The position numbers were made by a program, and so were the translations under genes. The notes below the pieces were generated by a model. It saw only the letters and a program-made list of their open reading frames with translations, had not been told where the DNA came from and did no database searches. DNA of 46,757 bases, taken from positions 1 through 46,757 of the forward strand of contig JBGTCM010000472.1 in NCBI GenBank assembly GCA_041748795.1. Reading direction: 5' to 3'. Below, piece after piece: positions 453 to 20,600 of this stretch; the first letter of the stretch is position 1; each line of letters opens with the position of its first letter. The stretch is from Pyrinomonadaceae bacterium (lineage in GTDB: Bacteria > Acidobacteriota > Blastocatellia > Pyrinomonadales > Pyrinomonadaceae).

Positions 453-3400
453 TTAGCAAATCTCCGGCGCAGCCACCAACCGCGACGTGCGAAGGATGCG
501 GTATTGGCCTAATTCGCGTGAGAGCGGGCGAACGGATGTGTCAGGGGTAGGTCCATGAATAAAGTACTGGTCATACCGGGGCATCATTTCCACGGCCAGC
601 ACACTTAGGCGAGTGTTCTTGTGCAGGTTAAACCTTTCCAGCAACGCTCGTATCTCTAACTCCGTCCACCGGCCGGCTCCAGTCGCTGGAGCGTCCAGGT
701 TTACCGAAACAATCTTAAACTTGTTCGGCACTGACTTAGGCTGAACAACTTCCAGCTTCAACTCGGTTAACAGGATATTCCGATTCTCTTTGCCATCCGC
801 CTGCCTCGTCTGCGCATAAAGCATGCACCAGATTTCCGACATGGGGGGCTTGCTGGTCACGTTCCTACCGCTGAAGACAGCCGTCGCATAATGGGCCGTA
901 GCGACTAACTCTTTCGGAGTGCGATCGACGAGAAGTTTGAGTGGCGGCGCGGGATGTTGCACACCGTTAACTCTTATTGGATGACCGAAGCGGCCCTTAG
1001 CTGTGCACCAGATTTGATTCGAGTGGCCCACCCTGATCTCATAGGTGAAGAACCCGAAGAGCTCATTAGATTCGTTATGCAATCCTGGAGGCAGTGGCAA
1101 TAAATAATGTACCGGGGAAATCTTGATTAATGCGTCCGGCTCGCTGGTCTCCGCCATCATCATTTGCATGGCGTCGATGCCGGCATTGTCGTTGGTCTGA
1201 TCGTTAGTAATGACGCGAATTAATTCATCACTGATGCCCAGCTTGGGATCTTCCTGCTTCACCATCACCTGGTCCATATTCGGGAAACTCAACAATGGAT
1301 CGGGCGCGTAGCTGAGTATCCTGGCAAAGTAGGTGTCGTTAGGATCTTTGATTGGATGTTCAAATTCCAGCCACAGGTAACGCTGGCGCACAGTTGTTTC
1401 AGAATATTCTTCGTCGCGTTGATAAGGCGAAAGCGCGTAGCCCGCAGCCACAACTTTCGGTACCTGGCTGGGTATTGTAGTGACGGGCAAATCCACATCT
1501 CGAGTGATGATTTGCTGATCGGCTGAGTCCGCCGTGACGCTGGGAATAAACTTTGGCGTCAACATATATTCAAGGTGCAGAGTGTTTGGGAAAGGGTTCG
1601 CCAGCGTAGCGGGTTTTCCCAGGTCTTTCTTTGGCTCGACCGCATCGATAAACAAGACGCGGGTATAGGTTCTGTCAGGATCGGTGGTGGCCACCCGGCT
1701 CGCAGTATCCTTCAGTTGCAAATACCCTACGACGTCAGTCTCGCGCGTGGCAGCCTCACCGGTGAATTGTTTCTCGCGACTAATCTCGATCCCCGTATCG
1801 CTCAGTCCCCTCCAGGTCCAATCCCGATTGATCTCAAACGACAGAACACATAACCAGTGATTGAAAAGATCTGCCTTGGTCGAGAAGGTCAGCGAAGAAT
1901 TATCCGGCGCCAGGGTATGCCTGATACGGTTGCTACAACCAAACTGAATTCGTTCGCCAGGTTTGCCTATTAAGGTCAACCCCGTGCAATCCACTTTCAG
2001 TTGCGAAGCCAAACGCTGCATCAGCGTGCTTTGCTCCAGTTCCTTGCCAGCTACAAGCTCCCACGTAAACGTTTGGGGGTTGTTGACTTTGGGCGGATCG
2101 GGCTGCAGGTAGATTCCTTGTAACTGCCGGGATTCCACATCCGTGCTGAAAAACTCTGTCTCCTCGGTTGCGTCTTCTCTCACAAAAAACTGGGTTGGCT
2201 CTCCGGCGCGCACGAATTCTCCAGCGATGATCGTTTCGGCAAAACCAAAATATTCAGGCTTATCTTCCTTCTCTGAGCAAACCGGCAGCAGAGTGATTCT
2301 TATGTCTCGTGATCTCGGCAAAACTATTTCGTCTGAATCATCGATGTCCGTTTGAGAAATGTTGAGATCACCATGGGTGATCTTGTTTTCAAAATCGAGC
2401 ACGTTAGCGTCGCGGTATTCCAGGGCGAGCGTAAATGGCTCCTCGGGATCAACGGAAAACGTTCGGAAGGTGGTATAGAGCGGGATGAAAGCCTCACGCT
2501 GATTAAGCGAGGCCAGGTTATCAAGTAATAACGACTTAACTTCCACGATCACCATGAAACGATCCACGTCAGGGTCAAAGTAGCTGACCTCACGTTGGTC
2601 CTTGATTCTCTCAAGGCCCACCTTTCCGGTATGGAGAAACAGTTTGTCGTCCAGGAGTTTCTGAAACGCATCGGCCGTGTCCATTTCAGTAAAGAGCAAA
2701 GCCGGATACCCGAGTCGAGGGCGGGCGACCTCGAATTCGTCTCCCTCGTAAAACACATTGGTGGATGAAGCGGGGTTGGGCTGGTCTATTCCGGGCACAA
2801 CCTTCAGTTGTTTTGGCGCCACGAATCTCTTGAAGATCACCGATGCGCTCTTTGCCGGCGCATCATTCAGCTCCCGGTCATCTTCGAGTGGGCCACCGCC
2901 GGTCATATCCGCAAGTCGAACTCGGAACTCATACTGCTTTCCATACTTCAGTTCAGGGTTCTCCGGAAGCAAAGGCTCATACAGCCCGCCTTTTTGGTCC
3001 GGCTTGGCATCGATCTTTGAATCACTGTAACTGCCGGGGTTAGCTAGTGCGCCGGAGTGGTCCAACGCGGCTGCTCGTTCGTCCGGCAAGACCAGCGATG
3101 GGCCATACCACTGGGTGAAGTAACTGGGTAACCAGAAAAGACCGGAGGGGTCGGCGTTTATTCTGGAGGGATAGACCTGCACGCCTGACTCCATCGGAGT
3201 AAGCGCCGGGGCGATTGACTCTCCCGCGAGCAGGAGCTCATCCTTGTTTTGGATTCGCACCAGCGAGGCCCAGGCGTTCTGCGGTTCCGCCTTCTCCCTA
3301 ACGTCCACGCGATAACTGAAAACTCCCAGCGGAGCGTCGATACGCGCTCCCGGCGTGGTCGGGTCGGCCAACACCTGGCGGTTTTGCCAGATGAGTAGTT

Positions 3401-4397
3401 GCTCATCGTCCCAGCCCAAACGGATTCCCGCGTCCTTCTGTACATGGATACCGTCAGGCTCTTCGCTCAGAATATTTGCGCTGACGGGTTGAAATGCATG
3501 GACGATTTTCGCGAAGCCGTCGTCGTAGTCGGCAGCCTCTATTTTGAGGAAATCAAATTCACCGTTTGGCGTCGCCGGTCCGGGAACCACCGGGAACAGC
3601 AATGCCGCAAACAATTGTCTTGGTCCATCAATATCGGGAATGCGCGCGGCATACTCCCTTAGCTCAACCGCAGGATTGACGATGCTAAACTGATTCAGCG
3701 GAGAAGTGAGATGAAAGTAGACCCAGCCGCCCTCGGCAAAATAGTCGGCGTCAGGCAAAGTCAGTGTCCACTGGTGTAACAAGCCGATGCTCTTAGCAAG
3801 TAGCGGTTGTCGCAGGCAGAATGCAATCACTCGTCCCCAGGTAATTTCATCGGCCGATTGTTGGAACGCGGGATTAAACTTAGTGTTCTTGAAAGCGCAG
3901 TGGTAGCTATCATCAGTCTTCGCAAACTCTGTTCGCGGATTAGTGAAGTTGAAGGCGCTGCGATAAGAGACCGGTAAATATTTCCGAATCCCTTCACTGT
4001 CCGCCCAGGGAGCTTCCGCGCCCATGTTCGTTGTTCCGCGAGGACTAGTAAGGGTCAGCTTAAACTGTGACGCCAGACCCTCGTAAATGAGTGGGAGGTT
4101 GGCGGGAAACGCGAGCGTTGTTGTTTGGGTGTTGGCCGTCACGCCTTCGCTGGCCAAAACAGCGGCGTTTGAAAATGGGTACGAACTCAATCCCCGAAGC
4201 GTCGTCACTTCGAGTTGAAGATTTGCACTGATGAACCGCGGAAGGTTCACACTGCCTCCGCCATTCAATTGACTTGGAAACGGCGACTGCAGATTTAGCA
4301 ATCCCTGGGTTGGCAGCAACAGCACGTTGAGCTCCAGTTGGTCGCCGGAGATGCGCTGCGGGAAAGTGAGAATGCGGAGTTTTTCAGGAAGTAGCAC
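453..4397 (-). CDS. Giant hypothetical protein, 1314 aa, no recognisable domain
   Basis: Uninterrupted 3945-nt ORF with a GTG start. It begins 33 nt after the stop of the upstream 1777-aa ORF on the same strand. By eye there is no signal peptide, no long hydrophobic helix and no catalytic motif. Confidence 0.85.
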   Translation of the reverse strand: MLLPEKLRILTFPQRISGDQLELNVLLLPTQGLLNLQSPFPSQLNGGGSVNLPRFISANLQLEVTTLRGLSSYPFSNAAVLASEGVTANTQTTTLAFPANLPLIYEGLASQFKLTLTSPRGTTNMGAEAPWADSEGIRKYLPVSYRSAFNFTNPRTEFAKTDDSYHCAFKNTKFNPAFQQSADEITWGRVIAFCLRQPLLAKSIGLLHQWTLTLPDADYFAEGGWVYFHLTSPLNQFSIVNPAVELREYAARIPDIDGPRQLFAALLFPVVPGPATPNGEFDFLKIEAADYDDGFAKIVHAFQPVSANILSEEPDGIHVQKDAGIRLGWDDEQLLIWQNRQVLADPTTPGARIDAPLGVFSYRVDVREKAEPQNAWASLVRIQNKDELLLAGESIAPALTPMESGVQVYPSRINADPSGLFWLPSYFTQWYGPSLVLPDERAAALDHSGALANPGSYSDSKIDAKPDQKGGLYEPLLPENPELKYGKQYEFRVRLADMTGGGPLEDDRELNDAPAKSASVIFKRFVAPKQLKVVPGIDQPNPASSTNVFYEGDEFEVARPRLGYPALLFTEMDTADAFQKLLDDKLFLHTGKVGLERIKDQREVSYFDPDVDRFMVIVEVKSLLLDNLASLNQREAFIPLYTTFRTFSVDPEEPFTLALEYRDANVLDFENKITHGDLNISQTDIDDSDEIVLPRSRDIRITLLPVCSEKEDKPEYFGFAETIIAGEFVRAGEPTQFFVREDATEETEFFSTDVESRQLQGIYLQPDPPKVNNPQTFTWELVAGKELEQSTLMQRLASQLKVDCTGLTLIGKPGERIQFGCSNRIRHTLAPDNSSLTFSTKADLFNHWLCVLSFEINRDWTWRGLSDTGIEISREKQFTGEAATRETDVVGYLQLKDTASRVATTDPDRTYTRVLFIDAVEPKKDLGKPATLANPFPNTLHLEYMLTPKFIPSVTADSADQQIITRDVDLPVTTIPSQVPKVVAAGYALSPYQRDEEYSETTVRQRYLWLEFEHPIKDPNDTYFARILSYAPDPLLSFPNMDQVMVKQEDPKLGISDELIRVITNDQTNDNAGIDAMQMMMAETSEPDALIKISPVHYLLPLPPGLHNESNELFGFFTYEIRVGHSNQIWCTAKGRFGHPIRVNGVQHPAPPLKLLVDRTPKELVATAHYATAVFSGRNVTSKPPMSEIWCMLYAQTRQADGKENRNILLTELKLEVVQPKSVPNKFKIVSVNLDAPATGAGRWTELEIRALLERFNLHKNTRLSVLAVEMMPRYDQYFIHGPTPDTSVRPLSRELGQYRILRTSRLVAAPEIC

Positions 4398-4430
4398 GAT
4401 GGTTATCTCTGTTGGTTAGTGAAAGTACAG

Positions 4431-7400
4431 CTACGCAATCTGACGACCCTCTTCCCAGGTGTCGGAAAACGAAATGTCGATGACCCAGAGGATTGTGATA
4501 TCAATCGAGAACGTGACTTGAGCTATGCAGTTGGTTTCATTAGCGGTACGCGTGACGGATCCGCCCGCTTCAATTTGAATAGTGACACCTACGAGGCCGC
4601 CGCAGATTTCCGCATGTCCGCGGAAGAGCATGAAGGCCCCGACCGTGACGGAGGTGGATGAAACGCCGACCTCGACCTCAATCATGTAAAGGACCGAAGC
4701 ATTGCCGACCACCGGCAGGCCCACCACTATTTCTACTCCAAAACCGAATTTCATTCTCAAAATGATTCCGGCTTTCGAGTCCGCTGCGATTCCAAGATTG
4801 GCCTGGCCCACAGCGTAGACACTGGCAGCGGCGAGAGTGAAACACATCACCTGAATCCGGCCGTAGAATTCGACGTAGGCGCCGCAGGCGGGAACCAGTT
4901 GTTTCAAATCGGTCGGGATTGCCATTAGCATGTTGAAATAGAAACCAACTTTCAGGCCGGCTTCCAATTTCAACGGGGGATTTGGATTGACACTTAACTG
5001 AGCGGGCGATGGGAATTTAATGACCGGAATCTCCTGGCTACAGTCGAATTTATATTCCCAACTGTCCGGCGAATTGCTCATGCCGACCTTCATGCCGTTG
5101 TCGAAATCATCACCCGAGAGCGTTGCCAGAATCTGAAGAATATCTTTTACAGTCTGCAGCACCGGCCCAAACTGCAGATTGGGCTTGTCGTATTTCGTGC
5201 TGGCGCCGCTTGACGCGTTAAAGTTCCCATCCACCCACATCAACCGGTCGAATGGACCAAGATCGACTACGATGCGAATATTCGATAAGGCAGCTTTCCA
5301 CTTATCTGCCAAAGCACCCGCCGAATCAATTCCGAGTTTGAGGTTTCCTGCGCCGCTGTTGCTTTGGTATTCAGCGTAGATTTTTAAGATCCCGGGCTCG
5401 TCCACAAAGGGATAGGAGAAGTTGGGCGGCTGCAGACTGCTGAGATTGAGATTTCTGTCAGCCATCTTCATCAGCCCTTCGCCGAGAATCTCAATTTCCT
5501 TTTCAGCATTGGTCAACGGCAGCGCGTTAGCGACGTTTGGAAACACCCCCTTGGAGTTGAGCAATTTGTAGGCATCGGCAAAATAGGTTTGGCTGCTCTT
5601 CAGCTTCTTCTCATTGGGCGCAAACTGTGGGATGTCGAAGAGTAATTTCTGCGTTCCGGTTGATTGGACCACACCGAAGTTGGAATTGGAGTCGGGCTTA
5701 ACCACGTCACGTGGATCGGCTATCCGGAATATTGAATCCCCCTGACGGCGGATCAGCGGCACACTCTTCCCTTCCTCGATTAGCTTTACGTCCTTCGTAT
5801 CGACTTGTTGGGTGACCACTGACCATGATCCGTCCTGCGGCAGGATCAGGGATCCGCGAACCGCGGCGGTAAAGATGTGATTGTCTGCATTGTCGAGGGC
5901 GGGATTCAAATCCACCCGCGCCAGGCGCATTTTTTGTTGGGAGTTTGCCACGTCGATGATGCAATCGACCGGGCCGCCCAGTGATCCATCCTGGAAGTTC
6001 AGAAGTTCGGCAAGCACTTTCGGCGGTATCAGGATCGACGAGGGCTTCAATTGGACGTAGCCCAGCATCTTTCGGGATTGGACTTTGAAGTCGCCCGCTA
6101 CCGTGTCCTTGACGCCACCGCTGGTGACGTTATCCAGATGAACGTCTCCGTCAAAGACCACGGCCTGGAGTTCCACGTCCAACTGATCATTAAAACTCCC
6201 AAGGCTGGCAAAAACCTTTTGCCACTCGACCAGACTGTTGATGCCGAGTTTGGTTGGCAAACCGCTTTCGTTCAGGCTGAATGACGACCCAAAGTTACCT
6301 GCCGCCGGGTAGTCTTTGATTTCGCGAACATCCGTAATGCCCTTCACTGCGCCTTTGTGAAACTCATAGGTGTTGTTAACCGGCACCTTATTGAAACCAA
6401 AAACGATCGAGTAGTTGCAGTCAAAGGTTGCGTCACTCTCGGCCTTCCAGCCTGAGTCCGAACGGAAAACATAACCGTTTGGTGAACGCATCAGGGTGAT
6501 GGTCCGGACCACATGAACGCAGCCAGCCTCCGTGTACATCACGCTTCGCACCTGAACCACTTCATGGGCCGTACGCCCAACCAGCACATCAAACTTCGCC
6601 TGGCTTACATCGGCAATCGTTGCTTCGTGATTGAACCAGTCACTAAACATGCTGGCGCCATAGCCCGAAAACTCTATCTTCTCCAGCGGAACCTTGGGCT
6701 TATCGACGGACATGATGTTGTTGAAGATTGTCTTGACCGTCTTGCCCAGTGTGCTGCCGGTGAGCGGAACCCCAAACAGTACCCACTTAATGTTGTTATC
6801 TATCTGAAGAGTTCTGCCGCTGAATGATGGGCGTTCGCCTAATGCTTTTGGTTTGAGCGCCACCGATTTGATTTGTAATCCACCATGCAGTTCATCGAAG
6901 TGCGGGCGATTGAAGGAAAGCCTGGCGGTGTCGTTGTTCGGGTTGCCGGCGTCGCGTTCAAAGCTGGCCTGCGCGATCAAGGCAAACGGTAACGTAAATA
7001 TTGAATGCAACTGGCGGGCGGTTTGCTCGTCGTTGTATTCCTTTATGAAATGTTTGGTCACCGAAAGAGGCGTGACCGGAACCAGGTATGGGCTTTCGGA
7101 GAAAAAGCGCGTGGGTGGCCCATCGTCGTCGTAGACTACCAATCCCGGAGTGATCGTGATCAAATCATCCAGCCAGTCGTTGATGTTGAAAGGGCCTTCG
7201 ACCGGCAAAGGGATGTTTGAAATTGGTTCCCAGGAGATCTGGGGCAAGGTCAGAGCTCGCAGGTTCTGCGCTACTCCGACTACGTCCATGTTCAGGATCT
7301 GAAGCGGCATCCCGGACACCAACATCAACGAGTTCGTTGCTCCAGAAAGGTTGGCATTGCCTCGCTCGTCGTTCTTCACTCGTATTGCAGTTCCCCAACT

Positions 7401-9764
7401 GACGCCCATCTGATCGGCCTTGCTGGAAACGTCGAGAAGGCGAAACAGATCCGGCAGGATATCGCGGCCACCCTGGTCACGCTCGGGCGGTACCGCAACG
7501 TTGGCGGATCGCGCCGAACGTTCCCCCGAAACTGATGCCGCAAAACTCCGATCATCAGTGCGAGCGGTGTTTTCGTTTGCAACGCGCAATACTCTGTCGA
7601 CTTCAATCGTCTTGTTCGACAGGTGGCCAAACATGGGATTCGAGTCGAGGTTGCGCAAAATCGATTGCCCATCGTCTGATTGCGTTAAGCTCTCGATAGG
7701 CCTGTTAAAAGTCGCGCGCACTCGCGAGGAGTCGAGTTCGACTTTTGTTCCTGTCTCAATTGTCGGCGTTGGCAACGACGCTCGCTCGAGCGCATCGCGC
7801 GAGATGAGGCTGCGGTTAAACGTCCTCACTCCTGCCTGGAAATTATTTGACGGTGTTGCGATGGGTTGATTGCGCTCGGAAGCGGCGTTAATTGCAGACG
7901 CACTATTGAAGAGGAGCGAAAGGTCAAGCGGCGCAAACCTGAAGTAAACGTATGGCGAACCGAATGCATCGTCTTCTTCAGCCACCGATGGGTCCGGCCA
8001 CTTCACGAAACCGGCGAGCGCAATTTGCAGTTGTCCGAATTGTCTTTGGGATCCTCCCCTCAGGAGCGACGTATAACTGGCCACATACGGATCCGGGAGT
8101 GTAGGCAGATAGAGATAAACCGCATGAAGCAGCGCTATCACGCCCTTCTCTATCCGGTCATCGACCAGATCGCCCGCGAGAAACAAACTATATGGCCGGG
8201 TAACGCCGAAGAGCGCATTTCGTAAAGTGATGCTGCGCGGTTCAAACGCTTCGGGCTTGTCGAAATTGCCGTCAAACAAAAGGTCGTTGTCGAAAAGAAA
8301 GGCTTTATAAGAGCTACCGGTTTGCACGATGCTCGCGAGCGCGATTGAAGATTCAATCTTGAAGGGTGCGCCGTTGGAATCCACAGGTCGATCAAGCGAC
8401 GCCTTATGTTTGCAGAAAAACAGAACTGTTTCGCTGCCTTTAGATGCCGAGATGTAGATGAACGGAAACGCCTTACCGAAACTCAGGGTGATTTCTGAAT
8501 GATGTTGTGCCGGCGAATTCTTCCAGAGACTCCAACGTTGCTTGCCGCTTAGGTTTGAGGCAAAGAAATCAAGCACCGTTAACATGCCGGGTTCAACGAT
8601 AATGCCCGGCTGGACGAGTTTGGTGAGACCCCCCTTTATTCCCTTCCAAGCGGCCGTTATGCCTTTAGACACGGCAATCCCAAGAGCGCCGGTTCCCGCT
8701 GCCGCACCCAACTGCGAAGGACTAACCTTTGCCGCCGGAAGCAACCATCCGCTGCCGCTTTTTAGTTTTGCTTTTCCCTTATACCGGCAAAGTTTCGAGT
8801 CGGAGGAGAAAATCTCAAAGGTGTCTGGTTGGCGGCTCGTAGTTTTAACCGAATAAGGAATTAGGATTTGGCCCAGCGGACCCAGCCACACCGGAGAAGA
8901 AGGGCTGAAGGTGAAGTCGGCGCCGCAACCGAAAACCTTGCAGGACGCATCCCCTGCAGCTAGTTGTCCGGTGCCGGTACTGAATTTTAAAGTAAGCGTT
9001 TCGGGCAGCTTGACCTTTGCTTTGTTTGCATCAAAACCGGCAGACGATGACGCGGGCCCTGTTTTATTCTGATTGAGGTTAAGCTGAAGAGTTGCGTTTG
9101 CGCCTAACTTGATAATGATCTTACCGTCAGTCACCTCTGCCTTCTGAGATAGATCGAGCGAGCCTCCAGTCACCTTCAATCCGGTATAGTGATCTTTTAG
9201 CGCCGCATCCGCAGCAATCAAGTCTGAAGCTATCCATACGCTCCCAGGCTCGATTTTATAAGAGTTCTTTTCGCTGACCGTTCCCCAAACGGGAATCAAC
9301 AACGACGGCGCGGAGGCCCCTTTTCGGTAAACATGGACCATCTTCGTTGGTTGATAAATATCAAACCAAACCTGAAGACCAAGATCATCGATGAAGGGAC
9401 CCAATGACGAGGTGGGGGCCATACCCGATCCCCACACGGGCGCGGACTGCCCCAGCAAGTTGTTGTGAAATTCCGTCTCGCGGCGGAAAACGAGCGGCGG
9501 AGCGGCCGCCTCCTCAGTTACGACGCGACCCTCCAGTAACTCCTCGAGGTGGCTATAACGTTCAACTGGTCCCGAGGCAGCTTCCATTTGGTGAGCACCA
9601 GCGTGGTGCAACCGATCCCCGAAAACTTGAAACGTGGAGTCGTCGGCAAAACTCTCGGCGAGCGTTCGTTGCAAGGCTTTGAGATCCGCGCCGGATGCAC
9701 GGCCGGTGGGTTTCAGGTTGCCGGTCAGCTGCTCAACCCGGGTAAAGATAAGCTCTTTTTCCAT
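4431..9764 (-). CDS. Giant hypothetical protein, 1777 aa; the C-terminal ~180 aa are a Gly/Val/Ile/Ala-rich, beta-strand-like segment
   Basis: Uninterrupted 5334-nt ORF with an ATG start preceded by a purine-rich gaagaagag. No signal peptide and no recognisable motif. The last 180 aa run from LKLEAGLKVGFYF to WEEGRQIA and show alternating hydrophobic/small residues. Confidence 0.85.
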   Translation of the reverse strand: MEKELIFTRVEQLTGNLKPTGRASGADLKALQRTLAESFADDSTFQVFGDRLHHAGAHQMEAASGPVERYSHLEELLEGRVVTEEAAAPPLVFRRETEFHNNLLGQSAPVWGSGMAPTSSLGPFIDDLGLQVWFDIYQPTKMVHVYRKGASAPSLLIPVWGTVSEKNSYKIEPGSVWIASDLIAADAALKDHYTGLKVTGGSLDLSQKAEVTDGKIIIKLGANATLQLNLNQNKTGPASSSAGFDANKAKVKLPETLTLKFSTGTGQLAAGDASCKVFGCGADFTFSPSSPVWLGPLGQILIPYSVKTTSRQPDTFEIFSSDSKLCRYKGKAKLKSGSGWLLPAAKVSPSQLGAAAGTGALGIAVSKGITAAWKGIKGGLTKLVQPGIIVEPGMLTVLDFFASNLSGKQRWSLWKNSPAQHHSEITLSFGKAFPFIYISASKGSETVLFFCKHKASLDRPVDSNGAPFKIESSIALASIVQTGSSYKAFLFDNDLLFDGNFDKPEAFEPRSITLRNALFGVTRPYSLFLAGDLVDDRIEKGVIALLHAVYLYLPTLPDPYVASYTSLLRGGSQRQFGQLQIALAGFVKWPDPSVAEEDDAFGSPYVYFRFAPLDLSLLFNSASAINAASERNQPIATPSNNFQAGVRTFNRSLISRDALERASLPTPTIETGTKVELDSSRVRATFNRPIESLTQSDDGQSILRNLDSNPMFGHLSNKTIEVDRVLRVANENTARTDDRSFAASVSGERSARSANVAVPPERDQGGRDILPDLFRLLDVSSKADQMGVSWGTAIRVKNDERGNANLSGATNSLMLVSGMPLQILNMDVVGVAQNLRALTLPQISWEPISNIPLPVEGPFNINDWLDDLITITPGLVVYDDDGPPTRFFSESPYLVPVTPLSVTKHFIKEYNDEQTARQLHSIFTLPFALIAQASFERDAGNPNNDTARLSFNRPHFDELHGGLQIKSVALKPKALGERPSFSGRTLQIDNNIKWVLFGVPLTGSTLGKTVKTIFNNIMSVDKPKVPLEKIEFSGYGASMFSDWFNHEATIADVSQAKFDVLVGRTAHEVVQVRSVMYTEAGCVHVVRTITLMRSPNGYVFRSDSGWKAESDATFDCNYSIVFGFNKVPVNNTYEFHKGAVKGITDVREIKDYPAAGNFGSSFSLNESGLPTKLGINSLVEWQKVFASLGSFNDQLDVELQAVVFDGDVHLDNVTSGGVKDTVAGDFKVQSRKMLGYVQLKPSSILIPPKVLAELLNFQDGSLGGPVDCIIDVANSQQKMRLARVDLNPALDNADNHIFTAAVRGSLILPQDGSWSVVTQQVDTKDVKLIEEGKSVPLIRRQGDSIFRIADPRDVVKPDSNSNFGVVQSTGTQKLLFDIPQFAPNEKKLKSSQTYFADAYKLLNSKGVFPNVANALPLTNAEKEIEILGEGLMKMADRNLNLSSLQPPNFSYPFVDEPGILKIYAEYQSNSGAGNLKLGIDSAGALADKWKAALSNIRIVVDLGPFDRLMWVDGNFNASSGASTKYDKPNLQFGPVLQTVKDILQILATLSGDDFDNGMKVGMSNSPDSWEYKFDCSQEIPVIKFPSPAQLSVNPNPPLKLEAGLKVGFYFNMLMAIPTDLKQLVPACGAYVEFYGRIQVMCFTLAAASVYAVGQANLGIAADSKAGIILRMKFGFGVEIVVGLPVVGNASVLYMIEVEVGVSSTSVTVGAFMLFRGHAEICGGLVGVTIQIEAGGSVTRTANETNCIAQVTFSIDITILWVIDISFSDTWEEGRQIA

Positions 9765-9900
9765 CGCGACTCTTCTTCTGCGAATGCGTGGTGACGGTGA
9801 AATAACGATTCGGCTTTGGTTCGTCCGTTGGACGACCGGAAACCTGGATACGGCGAGTACTTGGGGGTGGAGTATGTTTGCCGTTCAGGCCAGCAATGTG

Positions 9901-9917
9901 GGACAGACATTCCTGTC
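9901..9917. repeat. Copy 1 of a short dispersed hairpin repeat, ggacagacattcctgtc
   Basis: The same ggacagacatt core recurs at 20601-20620, and its reverse complement at 43567-43585. All three copies are intergenic. Confidence 0.6.
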
Positions 9918-10074
9918 AGTCTGGCCCTGGTTACAGAGCTGTCCGAGCTGTCGGGGTATTACCACAATTCGCACTGAGCGAGGACTACGGCGAATCGTTT
10001 ATCGGCCGGTGTAGCGAGAATGCGAAGAGGCTAGTCCGGCTCGAGAGAATTCAAATAGTTACGGAACGTTCGGC

Positions 10075-10103
10075 AGCCTAAGCCCGGATGATTCAAAAGT
10101 CAA
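10075..10103 (-). promoter_or_regulatory. Possible sigma-70-type promoter for the giant-gene pair (TTGACT-N17-TAGGCT on the minus strand)
   Basis: The reverse complement of 10098-10103 is TTGACT and that of 10075-10080 is TAGGCT, with 17-nt spacing. It lies in the 472-nt gap upstream of the 1777-aa ORF. Pattern match only. Confidence 0.2.
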
Positions 10104-10236
10104 TAGACAATCTACTCCTCGAGTGGTGCAATTAACGCAGACCGGATCCAAAGTTTGTAATTATCCGTTCGATCCGATGGACGCGTTCATTCACCCCTCA
10201 AAATTGGTAACTCTTTTAAAACACTCAAGCGCTGCC

Positions 10237-13080
10237 TTACCCAAGTGACGGGTCGGGCTCCACACGCTTGAGGATAACTAGCGTAATATCGTCAGAGGCG
10301 GGAGTCCCATGCGCAAACTTCGTGAGTGCCCCCTCTATTTTGTCACGGATGCCGGCGGCTGAACGTTCAATATTTTGCGACAAAACTTCCTGCAGGCGCT
10401 TTTCGGCGAATTCTTCACCCGCCGGATTCTGCAATTCGGTGACGCCATCGGAGTATGCAACGAGGACGTCACCGTGATGCAGTTGCGCAGTTCCCTCAGT
10501 CCAGCTAGCGTTGGGGAATATGCCTAGAGGGAGGCCAGTCGAACTAAGCTTTTCAAGGGTGCCGTCGGCGTGCGCGATGAGCGGTGGATTATGGCCAGCG
10601 TTAATGAAGGCCAATGAGCCGGTGAGCTGATTAAGCTGGGCATAGAAGAGCGTGACGAATCGATTGGCTGGAATGTTTTCTGCAAGGTAGCGGTTGACTT
10701 CCAAGATTGTATCAACGATCGAGCGCTGAGAAGCGACTTGCGCGTGCACTGCGGCATGTAATGAGGACATTAGGAGCGCGGCCGCAGTCCCCTTACCGGA
10801 GACTCCCCCCAGAGCTATTATCAAATGACCATTTGGCCTTTCAATGAAGTCGTAATAGTCGCCCCCGATCTCGTAAGAAGGGAGACTGTTGCCTACCAGC
10901 TGATAACCAGGTATTAGCGGCGGTGCCGCTGGTAGGAAACGCTGCTGAATCTCACTAGCCAATCGCAATTCGCGGTCGAGACGCTCTCTCTGCATTTCTT
11001 CCTCACGCAGACGGGCAGTCTCTACACGGATAGCGGCTACCGAACCGAGCGTCGTGAGCACCTTCAAGTGATCTTCAGTGAAGCGAGAGGTGGTCAAGGG
11101 CGAGTCCGCATAGATCAGGCCGAATATTCGATCGCCCACGCCCAATGGGACGGCGAGCACAGAGCGGATCCCATGTAACGTTATCGAGTGCGACATTACG
11201 CGAGGATCATGCTGGGCGTCGGAGGTGAGAATCGCCCTGCTTCGGATGACAACCTCGTCAATGATGTTGCGGCTAACTCTAACCTCACCCACCTCTGGTC
11301 GGCGGTCACGCGTTTCCGCAGCGCGAACGCGAACCTCTCCTGACTCGTCGTCGCGCAGCATAATGATGCAACGCTCGGCGGGCACAGCGTCGAAGACAAG
11401 GAGCGCAACCTGGCGGAGCGTCTCGTCTAACGTGGCCGCAGCCAAGAGCGTGACGCCTACCTTTGAAATGAGAGCAAGCAGGTCACTACTTAATTCTTTA
11501 TAAGCGGACAAGTCATCGTACAGTTCGCGGTAAATCTTTTTCGTCCAACTTTCGGTAAAAACATGCTCGTAAATCCGGTTTCGAACACGAAGTTGGAGAT
11601 TCTCATCAGCTACAACTAATCCTGACAATTTAAGTGCGGAGTGGACCGCCGATAATGGGTTATCCTTTACCACATGCCCTTGTGTAATGTGTTCGTAGAT
11701 TGTAAGTATTTCCAGGCTCTCTTTGTCCTTGGTCAATCTGTCTCGTACGAAATTTAGATTGGGTTCTTCACGGCTGGCCTCTTGAGATAAGAAATGCTCT
11801 TCGACCAGACGATCAACATCAGCCTCCTGGCCTGTTTCGAAGATTGCCTCAGCAACTAATTTGCAAAGCTTTTGCGTCAGGTATGGATGCCCACCTGTCC
11901 AACCTAGAACGCTCCCGAGCGTTTGCATACTTTCTTTGTGTCCTTCGCTCAAACCACCTGCCAGCGGTTTCGCCTCTTCAAATGAAAAGTCTTCCAGGTG
12001 GATTCCGTGTCCAATATTGAAGGGAGTTCTTTTCTGATCTTTTATCAGGTCCGACGGACTGGCCACGCCCAGGAGAACAAAGCTGAGACGATCATACTCC
12101 GACTGCAGGGCCCGTGAGTTGTAACAGGCGCGAATCGCCGCAAAGAAATCATCCGTGAAGGGTAGACTAATGGTCGTATCAATCTCATCTACAAATACAA
12201 CGATCTGCTCACGAGTTTCTGCTAAGACCAGATCATAAAAAAACTCAGTGAGACGCTGTAAGGCTGTAACCTCTGCGCGCGCGACCCACCACTCCTTCAA
12301 ATTAACCTTTAACTTAAGTGCTCTGACAATTGTATTTGCGATTCCGTAATACCATTTACTGGCGCCTCCCTCGCCCTGTTCGCTCCCAATCAATGTTAGG
12401 TCAACGAACACCGATACAATGCCTCGCTTTTGTATTTGCCTGGCCGTATGGACCATGAGACTAGACTTTCCCATTTGGCGTGGAGTAAGGACATAGCAGA
12501 TATCACCCGCGAGTAGGTGCTCGCATAGTTCCCGATCGGCGCGCCTTTCTATGTAGCTTGGAGCTTGTGGTCGCAGCGTTCCACCCACGACATAAAACTC
12601 AGTCCCGGTTCTTGTCTGCGACGACGAAACTTCCGGGACCACTTCATCGGCCTTTAAGGTGTCGTAGTAGTCTGGGCCGAATCCTTGAACGGCTCTGCTT
12701 AGTTCTAATGTTGCCGTGTGGCTCAAATCGCCCCCGGCGGTCCGCTCAGGCAAAGGGTCCGTGAAATCCGCGGCGCGTGAAAGCGACTCGTCGACCTCGC
12801 TGTAGATAATCAACGTGTCCCCAATTTTTATGAGCCCGCCCGGGGTGAGCACCACTTGTCCGGTTAGACTTGCTCCCTCGTAGGATGTCCCGTTGGCCGA
12901 CCCTAAATCCTGAAGAACATACTGATTTCCCTCGCGCCGGACTTCGGCATGGATTCGCGAGGCCATCGGGTCGGGAATGCATACGTCGTTCACCGCCGCC
13001 CGCCCGATAGTTATGCGCAACTTATCCAAATAGAGCCGTTGCTGAAAGCCGTCCGGAGAATTGATAAGTAACTCTGGCAT
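10237..13080 (-). CDS. FHA - AAA-like (STAND-type) NTPase - GAF - PP2C/SpoIIE-type phosphatase multidomain protein, 947 aa
   Basis: FHA: ITIGRAAVND..SRIHAEV..LQDLGSANGT. Walker A: TPRQMGKSSL. Walker B: VVFVDEID. GGHPYL motif present. GAF-like segment around residues 535-690. PP2C/SpoIIE motifs: EIGGDYYDF, GGVSGKGTAAALLMS, YSDGVTE, SDDITLVILKR. Confidence 0.8.
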   Translation of the reverse strand: MPELLINSPDGFQQRLYLDKLRITIGRAAVNDVCIPDPMASRIHAEVRREGNQYVLQDLGSANGTSYEGASLTGQVVLTPGGLIKIGDTLIIYSEVDESLSRAADFTDPLPERTAGGDLSHTATLELSRAVQGFGPDYYDTLKADEVVPEVSSSQTRTGTEFYVVGGTLRPQAPSYIERRADRELCEHLLAGDICYVLTPRQMGKSSLMVHTARQIQKRGIVSVFVDLTLIGSEQGEGGASKWYYGIANTIVRALKLKVNLKEWWVARAEVTALQRLTEFFYDLVLAETREQIVVFVDEIDTTISLPFTDDFFAAIRACYNSRALQSEYDRLSFVLLGVASPSDLIKDQKRTPFNIGHGIHLEDFSFEEAKPLAGGLSEGHKESMQTLGSVLGWTGGHPYLTQKLCKLVAEAIFETGQEADVDRLVEEHFLSQEASREEPNLNFVRDRLTKDKESLEILTIYEHITQGHVVKDNPLSAVHSALKLSGLVVADENLQLRVRNRIYEHVFTESWTKKIYRELYDDLSAYKELSSDLLALISKVGVTLLAAATLDETLRQVALLVFDAVPAERCIIMLRDDESGEVRVRAAETRDRRPEVGEVRVSRNIIDEVVIRSRAILTSDAQHDPRVMSHSITLHGIRSVLAVPLGVGDRIFGLIYADSPLTTSRFTEDHLKVLTTLGSVAAIRVETARLREEEMQRERLDRELRLASEIQQRFLPAAPPLIPGYQLVGNSLPSYEIGGDYYDFIERPNGHLIIALGGVSGKGTAAALLMSSLHAAVHAQVASQRSIVDTILEVNRYLAENIPANRFVTLFYAQLNQLTGSLAFINAGHNPPLIAHADGTLEKLSSTGLPLGIFPNASWTEGTAQLHHGDVLVAYSDGVTELQNPAGEEFAEKRLQEVLSQNIERSAAGIRDKIEGALTKFAHGTPASDDITLVILKRVEPDPSLG

Positions 13081-13142: not shown

Positions 13143-14678
13143 TCACAGGTGCTTACGAAAATATTCGGCATACAGCTGACACCGCATTTGGAGCGAGTGC
13201 CTCGTTTCCCCTTTGACCAATCCGGCTGCTTTAAGCCTTTGGAAATCAGTCTCATCATCACACATATTTTGGCGCAAGACATTCTGCATCACCGTTATTA
13301 GTTTTTCACTGTTCTGTATGGACCAGATGTAACGCCTCAAATGGTCGCTGAATGGCCCTGTCTCATCGGCGGCAGTTCTACATAACTCCTGAACGGTTAG
13401 ATTAGAGTTGGCCAAGGTGAAGAGTGCGTGCCGGATTAGGTATGGGTGTCCACCTAATAGATTCATTAGGTTGTTGATGTCGTTATCACTCTTCAACTGA
13501 TCCTTATATTTCGCGTTCAGTTCTTTAACTTCATCAAGGGAAAAGTCTTCGAGCCTGATTGAGAGACCTACATTGAAAGGAGATTGGTTTATGTTTTGTA
13601 TCCACAAATATGGTTCAGTTGAGTGGGCGATTATGATATTTAGGCGGTTCCAAATCTCTCGTGTCGCTCGAAGATTATGCCAACCTCGGATAGTTGCGAA
13701 GAATTGATCCCTATAGGGAAGATCGAAAAGTAAATCAACCTCGTCGAGTAAAAAAGTGACTGGTAATTCGGAGCCGGGCAAGATCACCTCCTCGATGTAA
13801 TCGGTTAAATTCTCTTTGGCCCCAAGAGAAGCATCCCAGCACCCGTCAGGCTTAGAGACTCCGAGGCTTTTGGCTAACCGACGTGCGAGATATTTTAATA
13901 ACTTATCAAGGCTTTCCAGCGGGTCGACGTCTACCAACTGAAAATCCAGGTAAAATGCCCTCCCATTGCGCTGCTGGGCAGCATGATAAGCCCTGGCGAG
14001 CAGGGAACTCTTACCTAATTGCCTCACGCCCTTTACGACAGTAGTGGTTCCATCAATATAGCCTTGTTTTTCTATCTGGGCATCAGCGCCTCGTCTGACA
14101 TAAAAAGGGGAACCGAGCTTGACCGTCCCGGTCTCTAACCACATCCGATGGTCTGCTGAAGGCAGCGGGGCGCCAGAGCCTTCGGTTGCATTTGTCAATT
14201 CTCTGATACCAGATAGCGAAGAATTATCTCGCTCAACTTTTCCGTTGTTGGGCAGGCTAACTGATTGTGCGATCGCAGATACTATGCGATTACCAATGGT
14301 CGCGAAATCATCACCTTCTTGCCAGATGGTGAACTGTATAGGGTCGAGATAGGCACCCAGGTCATAGGGAAGCTCTCCAGTAAACGCTACTCTGATCGGC
14401 AATATGACAAAGGGTTTTGCGAGGCCCTGGGTAAGCTCATACGCAAGTTTCACTTCCTGCCTAACCATATCGCTCAAAATTGACTGCTTTGACAGGAGAA
14501 CTATGAAGTAGTCTGACTCTCTGATTTGTTGTCTTATTTCGTCGGCCCACCTCATACCTACCGAGATTTGCTTATCAGTGAAAGCAACAATCTGATGCTC
14601 ATTAAGGAAATGCGCCAAGAACTCTGCCAGGTCCTGATCGGGATACACATGGCGATAGCTAATAAAGGCCGCGCTCAC
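13143..14678 (-). CDS. TIR domain - AAA-like (STAND-type) NTPase protein, 511 aa
   Basis: The N-terminus AFISYRH..DYFIVLLS..SDMVRQEV is TIR-like, with a candidate catalytic Glu at E75. Walker A: GVRQLGKSSL. Walker B: TFLLDEVD. SPFNVG..LEDFS and GGHPYL motifs are shared with the neighbouring gene. GTG start with a GGGAGG RBS 5 nt upstream. Confidence 0.8.
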   Translation of the reverse strand: MSAAFISYRHVYPDQDLAEFLAHFLNEHQIVAFTDKQISVGMRWADEIRQQIRESDYFIVLLSKQSILSDMVRQEVKLAYELTQGLAKPFVILPIRVAFTGELPYDLGAYLDPIQFTIWQEGDDFATIGNRIVSAIAQSVSLPNNGKVERDNSSLSGIRELTNATEGSGAPLPSADHRMWLETGTVKLGSPFYVRRGADAQIEKQGYIDGTTTVVKGVRQLGKSSLLARAYHAAQQRNGRAFYLDFQLVDVDPLESLDKLLKYLARRLAKSLGVSKPDGCWDASLGAKENLTDYIEEVILPGSELPVTFLLDEVDLLFDLPYRDQFFATIRGWHNLRATREIWNRLNIIIAHSTEPYLWIQNINQSPFNVGLSIRLEDFSLDEVKELNAKYKDQLKSDNDINNLMNLLGGHPYLIRHALFTLANSNLTVQELCRTAADETGPFSDHLRRYIWSIQNSEKLITVMQNVLRQNMCDDETDFQRLKAAGLVKGETRHSLQMRCQLYAEYFRKHL

Positions 14679-15227: not shown

Positions 15228-17711
15228 CTAGAAAGTCTTCAAAAATTCGATCAGCGCGCGCTTGTCTTCGTCGCTCAAGCCTGGTTCTCCGCCCGGAAAT
15301 TGATGGGTGCCGAAATAGTGGCCTCGGTTTACAACCAGGTCGGGGCACTTGCTGAGTTTAAGTAGCTGCGGCACGAGGGGCGTTAGAACTCGTGTCGCCT
15401 CTTGATCACTGGCTCCGCGCGGCAGGGCCTTTAGTGCCCTCTTTACTTCCAGCAGAAGTTTCAATATCTCTGCATCATATTTCCCGCGCTCCAGGAGACT
15501 CGAACCCTCGTACAGAATATTCAGGTTCGCAAGCAGGCTAACAGGCGTGCCCTTAGGCAACGGACCAATCTCGATACCTTCGTCGCCAACTAACCAAGGA
15601 AGATAGCGGGAGAAGAAACCGCCGGATCCCTGAAGGAAGTCGGGAAGGAAACCCGCGCCGACCCTTAGATAGCTCTGTTGGGTAGTGCGATCGATGGCGC
15701 CGGGAATCTTGTCTCCCAGCACCGAGTCCTTGTCACGTTTCTCGGGCCAGAGCATTTGCTCAATCGAATTCTGAAACGACCGCATACGTGCATCTACCGA
15801 TGGACTCTCTTCAAACTTGCCGACGCTGTTGTTTAGTAAGAACGGCGCCGTGGACCACAAACTGATTAGAGAAGGCGGCCGAGTGTAACCACGACCACCG
15901 GCGGGCATCTCATACTCATGCGGAGCGCCGGTCACAGGATCGTACCAGGTGATTTTGCCAACCGAAGGGAGGTCTTTATACGACTGCGAGGAGAAGTTGT
16001 CCCAGATATTCCCGCCGATTGCGTTGGTTGCCAGCGGACTACATGCGTTGGTCTGTAACAACGTCACCGGAACTCTGAATTCGGTGGAAAGGTAGTTGTC
16101 TTTCAGGAAGTCGTCGGCGAGTACGATGTTTCGCATCTTCGCCTTGAAGTCTTCGGTTTGGGTCCATGCCCAGTACTTGTTCCAACAATTGAGATAGTCC
16201 TTACCATTGCAACCTCGGGCGTCGTCGACTCCCGGAGCGGGCTCTGGGACCTTGCTGGAGTGACAACGTGCGCAGCGCTCAGCAAACACCGTCTTGCCGC
16301 GTGTGAGTTGGGCCTGGTCTTTGGTGAGATAGGCCTCACCACCAGGGGCGTCCTTCAGATAGTGAGGCTCCGTCGTCGCAAGGAAAAACGCAGCCATGTT
16401 CATCGTCTGATTCTCGGTGGCCTCGAAGTAACTCGAGTTGCGTCGCGAGACCGAGATCTCAATTGGCGTAATACGCTTGCCGCCCACCAGGGGATTGAAA
16501 TGAAGCAGCCACTCCTCGCTGAACACTCCGATGTTTATGTAGACGCGGTTCAACGCGCCGAGTGCGCCAACAGAATCCGAACCGTCTTTTAAGACTCGTG
16601 GCGTGTAAACGGTGTCCGGAGGCTCGAAATATTTAGTGAGTGGTCCATCCTTTACGTACTCGTTGAATTGCCGGTTATCTTTTCCCCCACCCGCCAGAGT
16701 TTCCTTGCCCCAGCGTTTGGCCAGCTCCAAACGCGGCCCGAGAAGGTACATGGCGTTCATGGTTCTTGGGTTGTTGATGCTGTCGGTCGAGACTAGTGAT
16801 GTGTCCAGGGTTCCCGGTCGGGACGTATGGAACAACTGAAAGATGAAATTGCTTTCGTCTTTTTCCCAATAGAAGATTCTGTCGATCCAGAAGTATTGTG
16901 CGCCGACGTTGGAGCTCAGATTTTCCCACTTCGGATTCTCGGCGTCAGCGGGAGGCTTGATCGGATTTGGACCAACGTGACAAAAGCCGCACGACATTCC
17001 CACGCGATACGGTCGCACCAGGTCTTTCGAATAGTAGTAAGAAGGATCCGTGTAGTATCTCTCCGCATCCCATTTTTGCGCGGCGGCTTCGTCAAAGTCA
17101 GGATTCGTAAACAAACGTAAGCCGACAATCCCGGTTTCGTATCCGTAATACGAGCCGACCTCCATATTCTTACCGCGAGAGCCGATTTTCACACCCGGAT
17201 ATTTTTGCTCATTCTCAAATGGCTCAGGCGGACAATCGGCGCGGCGCTTATCAAGCCAGAGGTTAAAGCGCTTGGGATCCGGAGCTGTTGCCTTTTCAAA
17301 GCACGGAGAATTAACGAGTCCGAAATACTTCCAGCGATTATCCCGGCTGAATTGGTATTTACTCTGGAGATTCGGATGTGAGGAAAGGATCTTTAGAAAG
17401 TCGAGAGCGCCGACGCTGGCGTTGACCATCTTGTCCCAAAACCTGTCATTGCCGGCGGTCCAAACAATCCAGGTGTTACGGCCTTTTACCTGTTCGGGTG
17501 TCAGCGGCAACCCGCCGTCCATATCATGAAAGAAATCTTCATCCGCAGCCGGGAAGCTGGTTGCTGCTCGTCCGGCTACGCGCGCCTCGTCAGGCACCTC
17601 ACCCGACTGTGGTCCATCCGACCTAATCCATTTGACGAGCACTACGCCACCAGCGACGACGGCGAGCACCACGACAATGATCGTTAACCTGAGGCGAGAC
17701 TTGGTAGTCAT
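15228..17711 (-). CDS. Membrane-anchored c-type cytochrome family protein with two CXXCH heme motifs, 827 aa
   Basis: N-terminal signal-anchor LTIIVVVLAVVAGGVVLV. Heme c motifs CGFCH and CARCH. The precise family was not recognised. Confidence 0.6.
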   Translation of the reverse strand: MTTKSRLRLTIIVVVLAVVAGGVVLVKWIRSDGPQSGEVPDEARVAGRAATSFPAADEDFFHDMDGGLPLTPEQVKGRNTWIVWTAGNDRFWDKMVNASVGALDFLKILSSHPNLQSKYQFSRDNRWKYFGLVNSPCFEKATAPDPKRFNLWLDKRRADCPPEPFENEQKYPGVKIGSRGKNMEVGSYYGYETGIVGLRLFTNPDFDEAAAQKWDAERYYTDPSYYYSKDLVRPYRVGMSCGFCHVGPNPIKPPADAENPKWENLSSNVGAQYFWIDRIFYWEKDESNFIFQLFHTSRPGTLDTSLVSTDSINNPRTMNAMYLLGPRLELAKRWGKETLAGGGKDNRQFNEYVKDGPLTKYFEPPDTVYTPRVLKDGSDSVGALGALNRVYINIGVFSEEWLLHFNPLVGGKRITPIEISVSRRNSSYFEATENQTMNMAAFFLATTEPHYLKDAPGGEAYLTKDQAQLTRGKTVFAERCARCHSSKVPEPAPGVDDARGCNGKDYLNCWNKYWAWTQTEDFKAKMRNIVLADDFLKDNYLSTEFRVPVTLLQTNACSPLATNAIGGNIWDNFSSQSYKDLPSVGKITWYDPVTGAPHEYEMPAGGRGYTRPPSLISLWSTAPFLLNNSVGKFEESPSVDARMRSFQNSIEQMLWPEKRDKDSVLGDKIPGAIDRTTQQSYLRVGAGFLPDFLQGSGGFFSRYLPWLVGDEGIEIGPLPKGTPVSLLANLNILYEGSSLLERGKYDAEILKLLLEVKRALKALPRGASDQEATRVLTPLVPQLLKLSKCPDLVVNRGHYFGTHQFPGGEPGLSDEDKRALIEFLKTF

Positions 17712-17773
17712 GGAATAAACCTCCTGCCCGATATGAGGGGCTAGACTGTTGAAAGTCTGGACAGTTGTTTACA

Positions 17774-19282: not shown

Positions 19283-19289
19283 GCATTCA

Positions 19290-20594: not shown

Positions 20595-20600
20595 TTTGTA

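Follow-up and report, generated by a model that had tools for sequence, protein, structure and literature searches.

The question raised by the locus described here is what two giant adjacent genes, whose products resemble no characterised family, might do for the bacteria that carry them. The genes lie on contig JBGTCM010000472.1 of a Pyrinomonadaceae bacterium (phylum Acidobacteriota; GenBank assembly GCA_041748795.1), of which positions 1 to 46,757 of the forward strand were analysed; this whole stretch of 46,757 nucleotides is referred to as the window. A first-pass annotation, made from the sequence alone, had reported two giant open reading frames (ORFs) between positions 453 and 9764 with 33 nt between them. 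Exactly two such ORFs were found in that interval, both on the minus strand, which the annotation had left unspecified. They are designated gene A and gene B, and are arranged as follows.

4431–9764, minus strand: gene A, the upstream member, 1777 aa; intact ORF with an ATG start and the stop codon at 4431–4433.
4398–4430, minus strand: the A-B spacer of 33 nt, established by inspection of the sequence.
453–4397, minus strand: gene B, the downstream member, 1314 aa; intact ORF with a GTG start and the stop codon at 453–455.

It is very nearly certain that these two genes constitute a real, novel and mobile two-gene module.

A and B are real, strongly constrained genes. In a comparison with the two closest relatives, both metagenome-assembled genomes (MAGs) of Pyrinomonadaceae with ~85% nucleotide identity, the ratio of nonsynonymous to synonymous substitution rates (dN/dS) is 0.07–0.10 in A and in B and is uniform along both genes, with a local peak of 0.20 in a linker of A. 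The 115 homologues of A are nearly all 1750–1830 aa long, and the 1399 homologues of B (at 90% clustering) have very uniform lengths of ~1300–1340 aa. An exhaustive phmmer search with B returned 962 clusters at 50% identity, 366 of which have E ≤ 1e-30. The start codons of both genes match the N-termini of the homologues, and B is better conserved than A, with mean pairwise identities of 0.47 and 0.41, respectively. The possibility that the ORFs arose by chance, are pseudogenes, or reflect an assembly or annotation artefact draws on a few fragmented relatives (loci L057, L062, L066 and L076). Pseudogenes and chance ORFs are nonetheless excluded by the low dN/dS together with the hundreds of full-length homologues of uniform length, and the two window genes are intact and free of the frameshifts that the first-pass annotation had considered as a sign of decay; the probability of an artefact is practically nil. 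The relatives with fragmented A or B, or with seemingly fused A-B ORFs (the same four loci and L019), come from the same MFD MAG series, and these copies may contain assembly indel errors rather than represent true pseudogenes.

The arrangement of the two genes is invariant. In every complete locus among 66 genome loci, 10 metagenomic loci and 4 megaplasmids, A directly precedes B in the same orientation, and the junction ranges across the family from a 4-nt overlap to a spacer of ~36 nt. This invariance supports the co-transcription and probable translational coupling that had been suggested from the short gap in the window. The pair is rare and patchy: the 66 genome loci were found among 185,579 species-representative genomes, a number that is a lower bound because the scan is pattern-based. 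The carriers belong to at least ~10 phyla and include Acidobacteriota, Methylomirabilota, Cyanobacteria, Alpha-, Beta- and Gammaproteobacteria, Bacteroidota, Chloroflexota, Gemmatimonadota, Actinomycetota (Mycobacterium, Streptomyces), Planctomycetota (anammox Brocadia, Gemmatales), Desulfobacterales and Bacillota (a Bacillus toyonensis plasmid), and thus monoderms are represented. Cultured carriers include Bacillus toyonensis DC11, Caballeronia terrestris LMG 22937, Bradyrhizobium rifense CTAW71, Mucilaginibacter aquaedulcis CECT 8102, Tistrella mobilis KA081020-065 and Microvirga terrae R24. The neighbour-joining tree of the pair interleaves the phyla, and the pairwise identities of A are correlated with those of B (r = 0.957). 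As the phyla interleave and the two proteins diverge in step, the pair has been transferred and maintained as one unit; A and B form an autonomous two-gene operon, inherited and horizontally transferred as such.

The guanine-plus-cytosine (GC) content of A and B, 0.51–0.55, is similar to that of the rest of the window, and the region of a nearby TIR gene has 0.46–0.48. The same contrast had led the first-pass annotation to propose that the pair is not an obvious recent import, unlike the TIR gene. The compositional observation is correct, and the proposal holds within the lineage, as judged by the synteny with the Pyrinomonadaceae relatives at ~85% nucleotide identity. It does not extend to the family, which has clearly spread horizontally between phyla.

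Neither protein could be assigned to a characterised family. All homologues of A and B are labelled 'hypothetical' wherever RefSeq and the other source databases name them, and none has a precomputed Pfam match. Searches with A and B yielded zero matches at E ≤ 0.1 in Pfam, NCBIfam, PADLOC and PHROGs, and zero matches to PDB sequences with either single sequences or family profiles (the latter at E ≤ 10). No recurring match emerged from Pfam scans of 13 divergent A or B members, of 6 unusually long B relatives, or of a 30-member deep B alignment at E ≤ 1, and the last of these contained no match to an enzyme family. Tandem DNA repeats were absent according to TRF, and self-BLAST and self-hhalign detected no internal repeats in A or B at the sequence or profile level. 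A and B proved to be unrelated to one another, and an origin of either by internal duplication was likewise rejected. Kyte–Doolittle analysis indicated no transmembrane helix, the maximum 19-residue mean being 1.79 in A, in a β-strand region, and 1.22 in B. No signal peptide was detected and the family N-termini are not signal-like; the conserved A N-terminus, MxxxxxLxRLxQLTGxLKP, lacks a hydrophobic h-region. Hence the statement, made by eye, that the pair has no recognisable domain, repeat, signal peptide or long transmembrane helix withstands systematic searching.

Structure comparison was carried out with Foldseek, using an AlphaFold model of A residues 762–1777 against PDB and BFVD and a model of B residues 1–1200 against PDB. 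Only generic β-meander or β-sandwich resemblance was obtained, with template modelling (TM) scores of at most 0.34, and on this ground Tc toxin, RHS shell, phage tail or baseplate, secretion-system component, alpha-2-macroglobulin and outer-membrane barrel were rejected as family assignments. The first-pass annotation would have been refuted if sensitive profile and structure searches had placed the pair in a well-characterised family; they found none. Neither the 2.9 million viral contigs nor the 50,697 phage genomes searched contained a member, a result that speaks against a phage or viral origin. A search of the accessible literature by accession, locus tag and keyword retrieved no paper mentioning any member. 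A and B are families without known relatives in sequence or predicted fold and are new at the family level.

An alignment of 30 A sequences across the clades shows invariant residues along the whole length of the protein, from which it follows that the architecture is fixed and that domains have not been swapped. Four regions can be distinguished in A.

8085–9764, minus strand: A residues 1–560, N-terminal region, conserved in all clades and diverging faster than the C-terminal half.
7485–8084, minus strand: A residues 561–760, variable, indel-rich linker with the lowest conservation, the most gaps and the local dN/dS peak.
4974–7484, minus strand: A residues 761–1597, compact all-β core, delineated by the AlphaFold model and the invariant residues.
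4434–4973, minus strand: A residues 1598–1777, predicted amphipathic β-meander and tail, delineated by model strands, face hydropathy and conservation.

The invariant residues of the N-terminal region are G122, P123, W177, G195, G201, P254, S323, W373, W414, P460, N516 and L556-D-P-Y560; BLAST alignments to the clade at ~40% identity cover only residues ~774–1777. The core begins with the invariant LLDVS (776–780) and further contains GYG (1034–1036), R1064, R1087, R1093 and R1101-x-D-x-G-W1106. The model of residues 762–1777 has a mean predicted local distance difference test (pLDDT) value of 80.6 and a predicted TM score of 0.71, and is β-structured almost throughout, with ~60 strands and 4 longer helices. 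In this model, residues 1598–1758 are predicted to form eight strands of 16–22 residues connected by tight turns. One face of these strands is strongly apolar (hydropathy 2.2–3.6) and the opposite face is not (-1.5 to 0.0), a contrast displayed by no other long strand of the A model. The meander is followed by a conserved W-x-E-x-R-Q-I-A tail, so that A ends in ...WEEGRQIA. Residues 1598–1777 are the most conserved part of A, and the apolar/polar alternation is kept even in members of only 25–26% overall identity (Bacillus, Streptomyces). The Foldseek matches of the A model with the highest probabilities in PDB are all transmembrane β-barrels (LptD 0.97, OmpT 0.95, maltoporin 0.95 and MtrB 0.93), with TM-scores of 0.09–0.34, the best being 0.34 when normalised by the target and 0.13 when normalised by the query, values too low for a match of folds. 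Presumably, it is the modelled C-terminal meander that draws these matches. In BFVD, the A model gave weak phage-tail-like matches with TM-scores of ~0.1.

The AlphaFold model of B residues 1–1200 is of mixed quality (pLDDT 66), and its confident parts are several tandem β-sandwich domains. Their Foldseek likeness is limited to arrestin, Vps26 and FN3 tandem sandwiches, with query-normalised TM-scores of at most 0.11. The stretch YEFRVRLADMTGGGP in B is presumably an FN3-like F-G hairpin sequence. The first-pass annotation had seen no Ig-like or similar tandem repeats; this is correct for the sequence, and the B model nevertheless contains cryptic FN3/arrestin-like β-sandwich folds that are invisible by eye because they are not sequence repeats. 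Two segments of B stand out in the family alignment.

3402–3554, minus strand: B residues 282–332, the most conserved block of either protein (conservation 0.86–0.90), with pLDDT below 50.
456–527, minus strand: B residues 1291–1314, with the family pattern P-L-S-x-x-L-G-x-Y-R-I-L-R-T-S-x-L-x-x-x-P-x-x-C, which ends in an invariant cysteine.

The first block contains the invariants D282, (D-Y-D)-D293-G294 within DYDDG (290–294), K297, H300, Q303, G324 and W329-D-D-E332 within GWDDE (328–332). DYDDG and GWDDE look like metal or Ca2+ sites. The C-terminus of B occurs in two forms, ...PEIC-stop, as in the window, and ...PEICCxxC(x)-stop, and the close clade contains both. Two residue pairs, C167 with C1314 (the first cysteine of either form) and H300 with H1125, are invariant and might represent a metal site or a modification site. 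The low pLDDT of the conserved stretches of B may mean either that a partner is needed for folding or that the input alignment, 47 sequences of 63–90% identity, was too shallow. One B relative of 1809 aa (P0272) is extended at its C-terminus by a segment with an FG-GAP repeat, which as a rule occurs in extracellular proteins.

The acidic residues of B raise the possibility that the pair is an enzyme complex, in which B would be catalytic through a metal-dependent acidic cluster (D282, DYDDG, K297, H300, GWDDE) acting on a polymer such as a polysaccharide, a nucleic acid or peptidoglycan, and A would be the substrate-binding or scaffold partner. Such a division of labour would be consistent with the position of five invariant acidic residues, together with K297, H300 and Q303, in the most conserved block, with the higher conservation of B, and with the composition of the invariants, which in B comprise 18 Asp, 14 Arg, 6 Glu and 2 His and in A are mostly Gly, Pro and Trp. 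However, no enzyme-family profile matched 30 diverse B members even at E ≤ 1, no PDB sequence-profile match was obtained, and the B model shows only β-sandwich-like domains and no recognisable catalytic fold. Asp-rich invariants in β-sandwich proteins are, moreover, often structural Ca2+ sites. An enzymatic role is regarded as quite unlikely.

The borders of the module were delineated with its closest relatives, L011 and L012, which are Pyrinomonadaceae MAGs with 89–91% protein identity. The blastn homology block shared with them extends from window positions 10109–10111 to 453–455, the B stop codon, and the flanks differ. Two features adjoin the genes.

9765–10111, minus strand: upstream leader/promoter region of ~345 nt preceding A, co-inherited with the pair in close relatives according to the blastn block.
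367–394: GC-rich hairpin, terminator-like on the plus strand (T-run), located 59 nt past the B stop codon, with a 12-bp stem that includes 10 GC pairs.

The hairpin, judged from its sequence, could act bidirectionally and close the A-B transcription unit. Conservation of the upstream DNA is restricted to the close relatives and was not seen in more distant loci, and the region has no Rfam match. There is no sign of a third conserved gene, as no other cluster of flanking ORFs occurs in more than 7 of 67 loci, and the ORFs that follow B at a short gap have no homologues elsewhere and look spurious. No Pfam family was found in more than 3 of 150 immediate neighbours, most of which are housekeeping genes, and no integrase, transposase or repeats flank the pair consistently.

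Several individual loci place the pair beside genes of biological conflict. Each PADLOC model that matched any of the 150 neighbours did so only once (Septu, QatC, a TIR effector and PDC-S01). By raw count, TIR-domain genes of four different types lie beside the pair in four independent loci. In the window, a TIR-AAA_35 gene is located two genes upstream of A; this STAND-like gene (13143–14678, minus strand) and a second one, an FHA-AAA_35-GAF-PP2C/SpoIIE gene (10237–13080, minus strand), lie directly upstream of the pair, and the GC content of the former is the 0.46–0.48 noted above. In L012, the corresponding slot, bounded by A and a shared cytochrome c-like gene, holds a CAP12/Pycsar-TIR gene (364–1605). 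Because its contents differ between the window and L012, this slot looks like a local hotspot for defence genes. In L007-9, which belong to a distant branch of the family, a ThsB_TIR-pNTSase1-TPR-S operon (3670–7243 in L007) runs divergently from A, and in L056, a Vicinamibacterales MAG, a 201-aa TIR_2 gene (13949–14554) starts 21 nt after B on the same strand. A second TIR_2 gene (19441–20550) is present in L056, 5.5 kb further on. In L007-9 and L056, the proximity may reflect either a functional link or shared residence in an island. Of the megaplasmid copies, the one in Tistrella lies between RelBE and HipA toxin-antitoxin modules, the one in Chlorohelix has CRISPR I-D and WYL genes nearby, the one in Bacillus is close to an ABC-three-component gene, and the one in Microvirga is located among insertion sequence (IS) elements. 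These surroundings indicate an accessory setting of the conflict type, but overall the association is weak.

The plasmid copies could also be taken to indicate a selfish or addiction module of mobile elements, such as a giant toxin-antitoxin-like pair or a function in plasmid stabilisation or exclusion, kept because its loss is costly. The four megaplasmid copies do reside in IS- or toxin-antitoxin-rich regions, the homology block is sharply bounded within otherwise different flanks, and the pair has crossed between phyla. Against this, most copies are chromosomal and lie among housekeeping genes with borders devoid of integrases, transposases and repeats, and the pair was not found in the phage and viral collections. 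The coding cost of 9.3 kb and the conservation of every part are also hard to reconcile with a simple addiction pair. This explanation is very unlikely.

The strict co-occurrence of A and B, their correlated divergence, the tight or overlapping junctions and the conserved B segments that do not fold confidently alone suggest that the two proteins form one stable heteromeric complex of ~340 kDa per A-B pair. The function that we favour for it, tentatively and as something short of probable, is that of a binary membrane-engaging conflict complex, a membrane-attack device serving as defence or toxin. The complex would act on a lipid membrane in inter-organism conflict, with A as the effector part by virtue of its last ~180 residues, whose eight long strands are strongly apolar on one side. 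That side would stay buried at rest; a trigger would set the strands free to combine, probably with those of other copies, into a bilayer-inserted β-barrel or sheet. B, with its β-sandwich array, its invariant Asp-rich motifs (DYDDG and GWDDE, the putative metal or Ca2+ sites) and its invariant C-terminal cysteine, would be the recognition and regulatory subunit. In favour of a membrane-engaging element are the amphipathic contrast confined to the end of A, its conservation in the most distant members and the β-barrel matches of high probability; a role in conflict is favoured by the sporadic distribution with transfer across phyla, by the accessory regions that hold the plasmid copies and by the TIR genes beside the pair. 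Whether the target would be the carrier's own membrane, as in abortive-infection defence, or a foreign membrane reached after non-classical release, as for a binary toxin, is judged about equally probable. An intracellular abortive-infection role is favoured by the lack of an export signal, by the presence of the pair in monoderms as well as diderms, and by its TIR and toxin-antitoxin neighbours. A released toxin is favoured by the all-β, FN3-like and Asp-rich make-up, the FG-GAP fusion, and the likeness only to extracellular, outer-membrane or phage-tail proteins. The same tension affects the earlier description of the pair as cytoplasmic: export signals are indeed missing, which makes a cytoplasmic location a deduction only, and the all-β, β-sandwich and Asp-rich composition is more typical of extracellular proteins.

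In its fullest form, the proposal would define a new kind of bacterial membrane-attack or immune machine: a ~340-kDa heteromeric all-β complex built from two folds without known relatives and lacking a secretion signal, able to work in single- and double-membrane bacteria, storing an eight-strand amphipathic sheet that converts into a giant β-barrel pore, and exchanged among at least 10 phyla as one cassette. All of this together is possible but doubtful. Several observations weigh against a membrane-attack function. In the meander, conservation is higher on the apolar face (entropy 1.31) than on the polar face (1.88), a pattern that a packed protein core would explain no less well than a surface exposed to lipid. 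The barrel matches, with TM-scores of 0.09–0.34, may reflect merely long antiparallel strands. Library, PDB and Foldseek searches revealed no sequence or fold kinship to any pore former, toxin or defence protein. The uniform lengths, the absence of domain swapping and the uniformly low dN/dS are unlike what is seen in fast-evolving sensors or polymorphic toxins. Neither the clustering of flanking ORFs nor the downstream ORFs pointed to a linked lysis, secretion or immunity gene, and the association with defence islands is weak, given singleton PADLOC neighbours and mostly housekeeping flanks. Finally, B residues 135–200, 276–359 and 1016–1200 are the best conserved of that protein, yet have pLDDT values below 50, and the B model is poor there.

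Some of these properties are what a cellular machine outside conflict would exhibit. A and B could form an assembly with a structural or lipid-handling task, such as a sheet that binds or transfers lipids, a membrane tether, or a scaffold for the envelope or for inclusions. Bacteria of soil and fresh water would gain a niche advantage from it, and its horizontal spread would resemble that of other accessory organelles. The constraint is machine-like, with identical lengths and architecture across phyla, invariants throughout and no fast-evolving patch. Preferential conservation of the apolar face is expected of a lipid-binding groove or packed interface, and weak Foldseek matches to the lipid-binding sheets of ApoB100 and to LptD are in line with such a role, as are the housekeeping flanks and a GC content equal to that of the host genome. 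However, the pair is very rare and patchy even if the count of loci is a lower bound, strong amphipathicity is limited to the last ~180 residues of A, and no lipid or envelope genes are linked to it among the neighbours. There is also no N-terminal membrane anchor of the kind found in AsmA/TamB-type lipid bridges, which in addition possess a full-length hydrophobic groove, and A and B have no AsmA or DUF490 Pfam match. The carriers are both monoderm and diderm, which makes an outer-membrane-specific role impossible. A machine of this type is considered unlikely.

For the favoured membrane-engaging complex, as for the alternatives, known systems provide analogies for how the pair might work rather than for what it is; in each case a defining feature was looked for and was not found. 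Tc (ABC) toxins are likewise encoded by adjacent genes for very large proteins without signal peptides, a resemblance that is insufficient for membership. They are also β-rich, are thought to assemble into one membrane-attacking complex, and have mobile loci that are plasmid-borne or accessory. They differ in having RHS/YD repeats and TcA, TcB and SpvB domains, none of which is present in the window proteins or the 13 divergent members, and in comprising three genes rather than two; no Tc, RHS or teneurin structure was among the Foldseek matches. The β-barrel pore formers, namely the aerolysin and haemolysin families and the bacterial gasdermins, which act from the cytoplasmic side in abortive infection, are soluble, lack a transmembrane helix or signal peptide, and use long amphipathic β-hairpins. 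A is comparable in that its model displays eight strands of bilayer-spanning length (16–22 residues) with alternating faces that are conserved in the family. Unlike these proteins, A is 5–10 times larger, would contribute eight contiguous strands per chain instead of one or two hairpins, shows no sequence or fold match to them, and has no linked protease or trigger gene.

The giant outer-membrane barrels (LptD, MtrB, the PapC/FimD ushers, SprA and Deinococcus SlpA) gave the best Foldseek probabilities and share with A long antiparallel amphipathic strands of 16–22 residues, but their TM-scores are only 0.09–0.16 (0.26–0.34 for smaller porins), and none exceeds 0.5. Outer-membrane barrels that are Omp85/BAM substrates carry a Sec signal peptide and an aromatic C-terminal β-signal, whereas A ends in ...RQIA. 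Moreover, they are restricted to organisms with an outer membrane, and the A-B pair occurs in Bacillus toyonensis, Streptomyces sp., Actinomycetota and Chloroflexota. Phage tail-tip, lambda J-like host-specificity and tail-fibre proteins are similarly large and all-β with embedded FN3-like sandwiches, and account for the weak BFVD matches; they are set apart by TM-scores of only ~0.1, the lack of a PHROG match, of viral or phage members and of tail genes near the pair. The defence systems catalogued in PADLOC, including candidate PDC systems, resemble the pair in being sporadic and horizontally transferred, and the pair sometimes lies beside TIR, Septu, Qat, toxin-antitoxin or CRISPR genes. 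No PADLOC model matches it, however, most of its neighbourhoods do not look like defence islands, and it is unusually rigid and slow-evolving. Polymorphic toxins (RHS, CDI and MafB-type) have a variable C-terminal toxin and an immunity gene, whereas A and B are best conserved at their C-termini, and no conserved gene lies downstream. Bacterial alpha-2-macroglobulin, to which the B model had a match of low probability (4rtd, 0.30), has a signal peptide or lipobox, a CxEQ thioester motif and the Pfam A2M domain; the pair shows neither a signal peptide nor an A2M match, and the C-terminal CCExC of B is not CxEQ.

Other parts of the window and of related loci were noted in passing. Upstream of the TIR-AAA_35 gene, a run of redox-type genes occupies 15228–23267 (minus strand) and encodes an 827-aa cytochrome c-like protein with one N-terminal hydrophobic segment, a DyP-type peroxidase-like protein (17774–19282), a 434-aa protein without a Pfam match (19290–20594) and a GMC oxidoreductase (21390–23267). 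Catalase/KatG genes neighbour the pair on the Tistrella and Chlorohelix plasmids; catalase and peroxidase neighbours are taken as coincidence, as they are absent from the recurrent families in the 150-neighbour scan. A full-length bacterial homologue of angiotensin-converting enzyme (Peptidase_M2, E = 1.9e-232) is encoded at 37220–39067 on the plus strand. Positions 1–217, outside the A-B homology block, contain nested inverted repeats with arms at 1–11/207–217, 35–50/177–192, 50–64/124–138 and 143–154/156–167, and fold as one long hairpin of -117.7 kcal/mol with a z-score of -8.6 relative to shuffled sequences. This hairpin matches no Rfam family and is not repeated elsewhere in the window, and it may be incomplete because it touches the window edge.

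Most conserved proteins can by now be classified through profile and structure searches, and a two-protein module of 9.3 kb that is nearly unchanged across so many phyla, yet fits no protein family or fold class, is a rarity. The uniform strong selection on A and B implies that every part of their ~3,100 residues matters to the carrier. Should the pair prove to be a pore-forming defence or toxin complex, bacterial immunity or toxin biology would gain a new structural class; as a lipid or envelope machine, the pair would constitute a new accessory organelle-like system.

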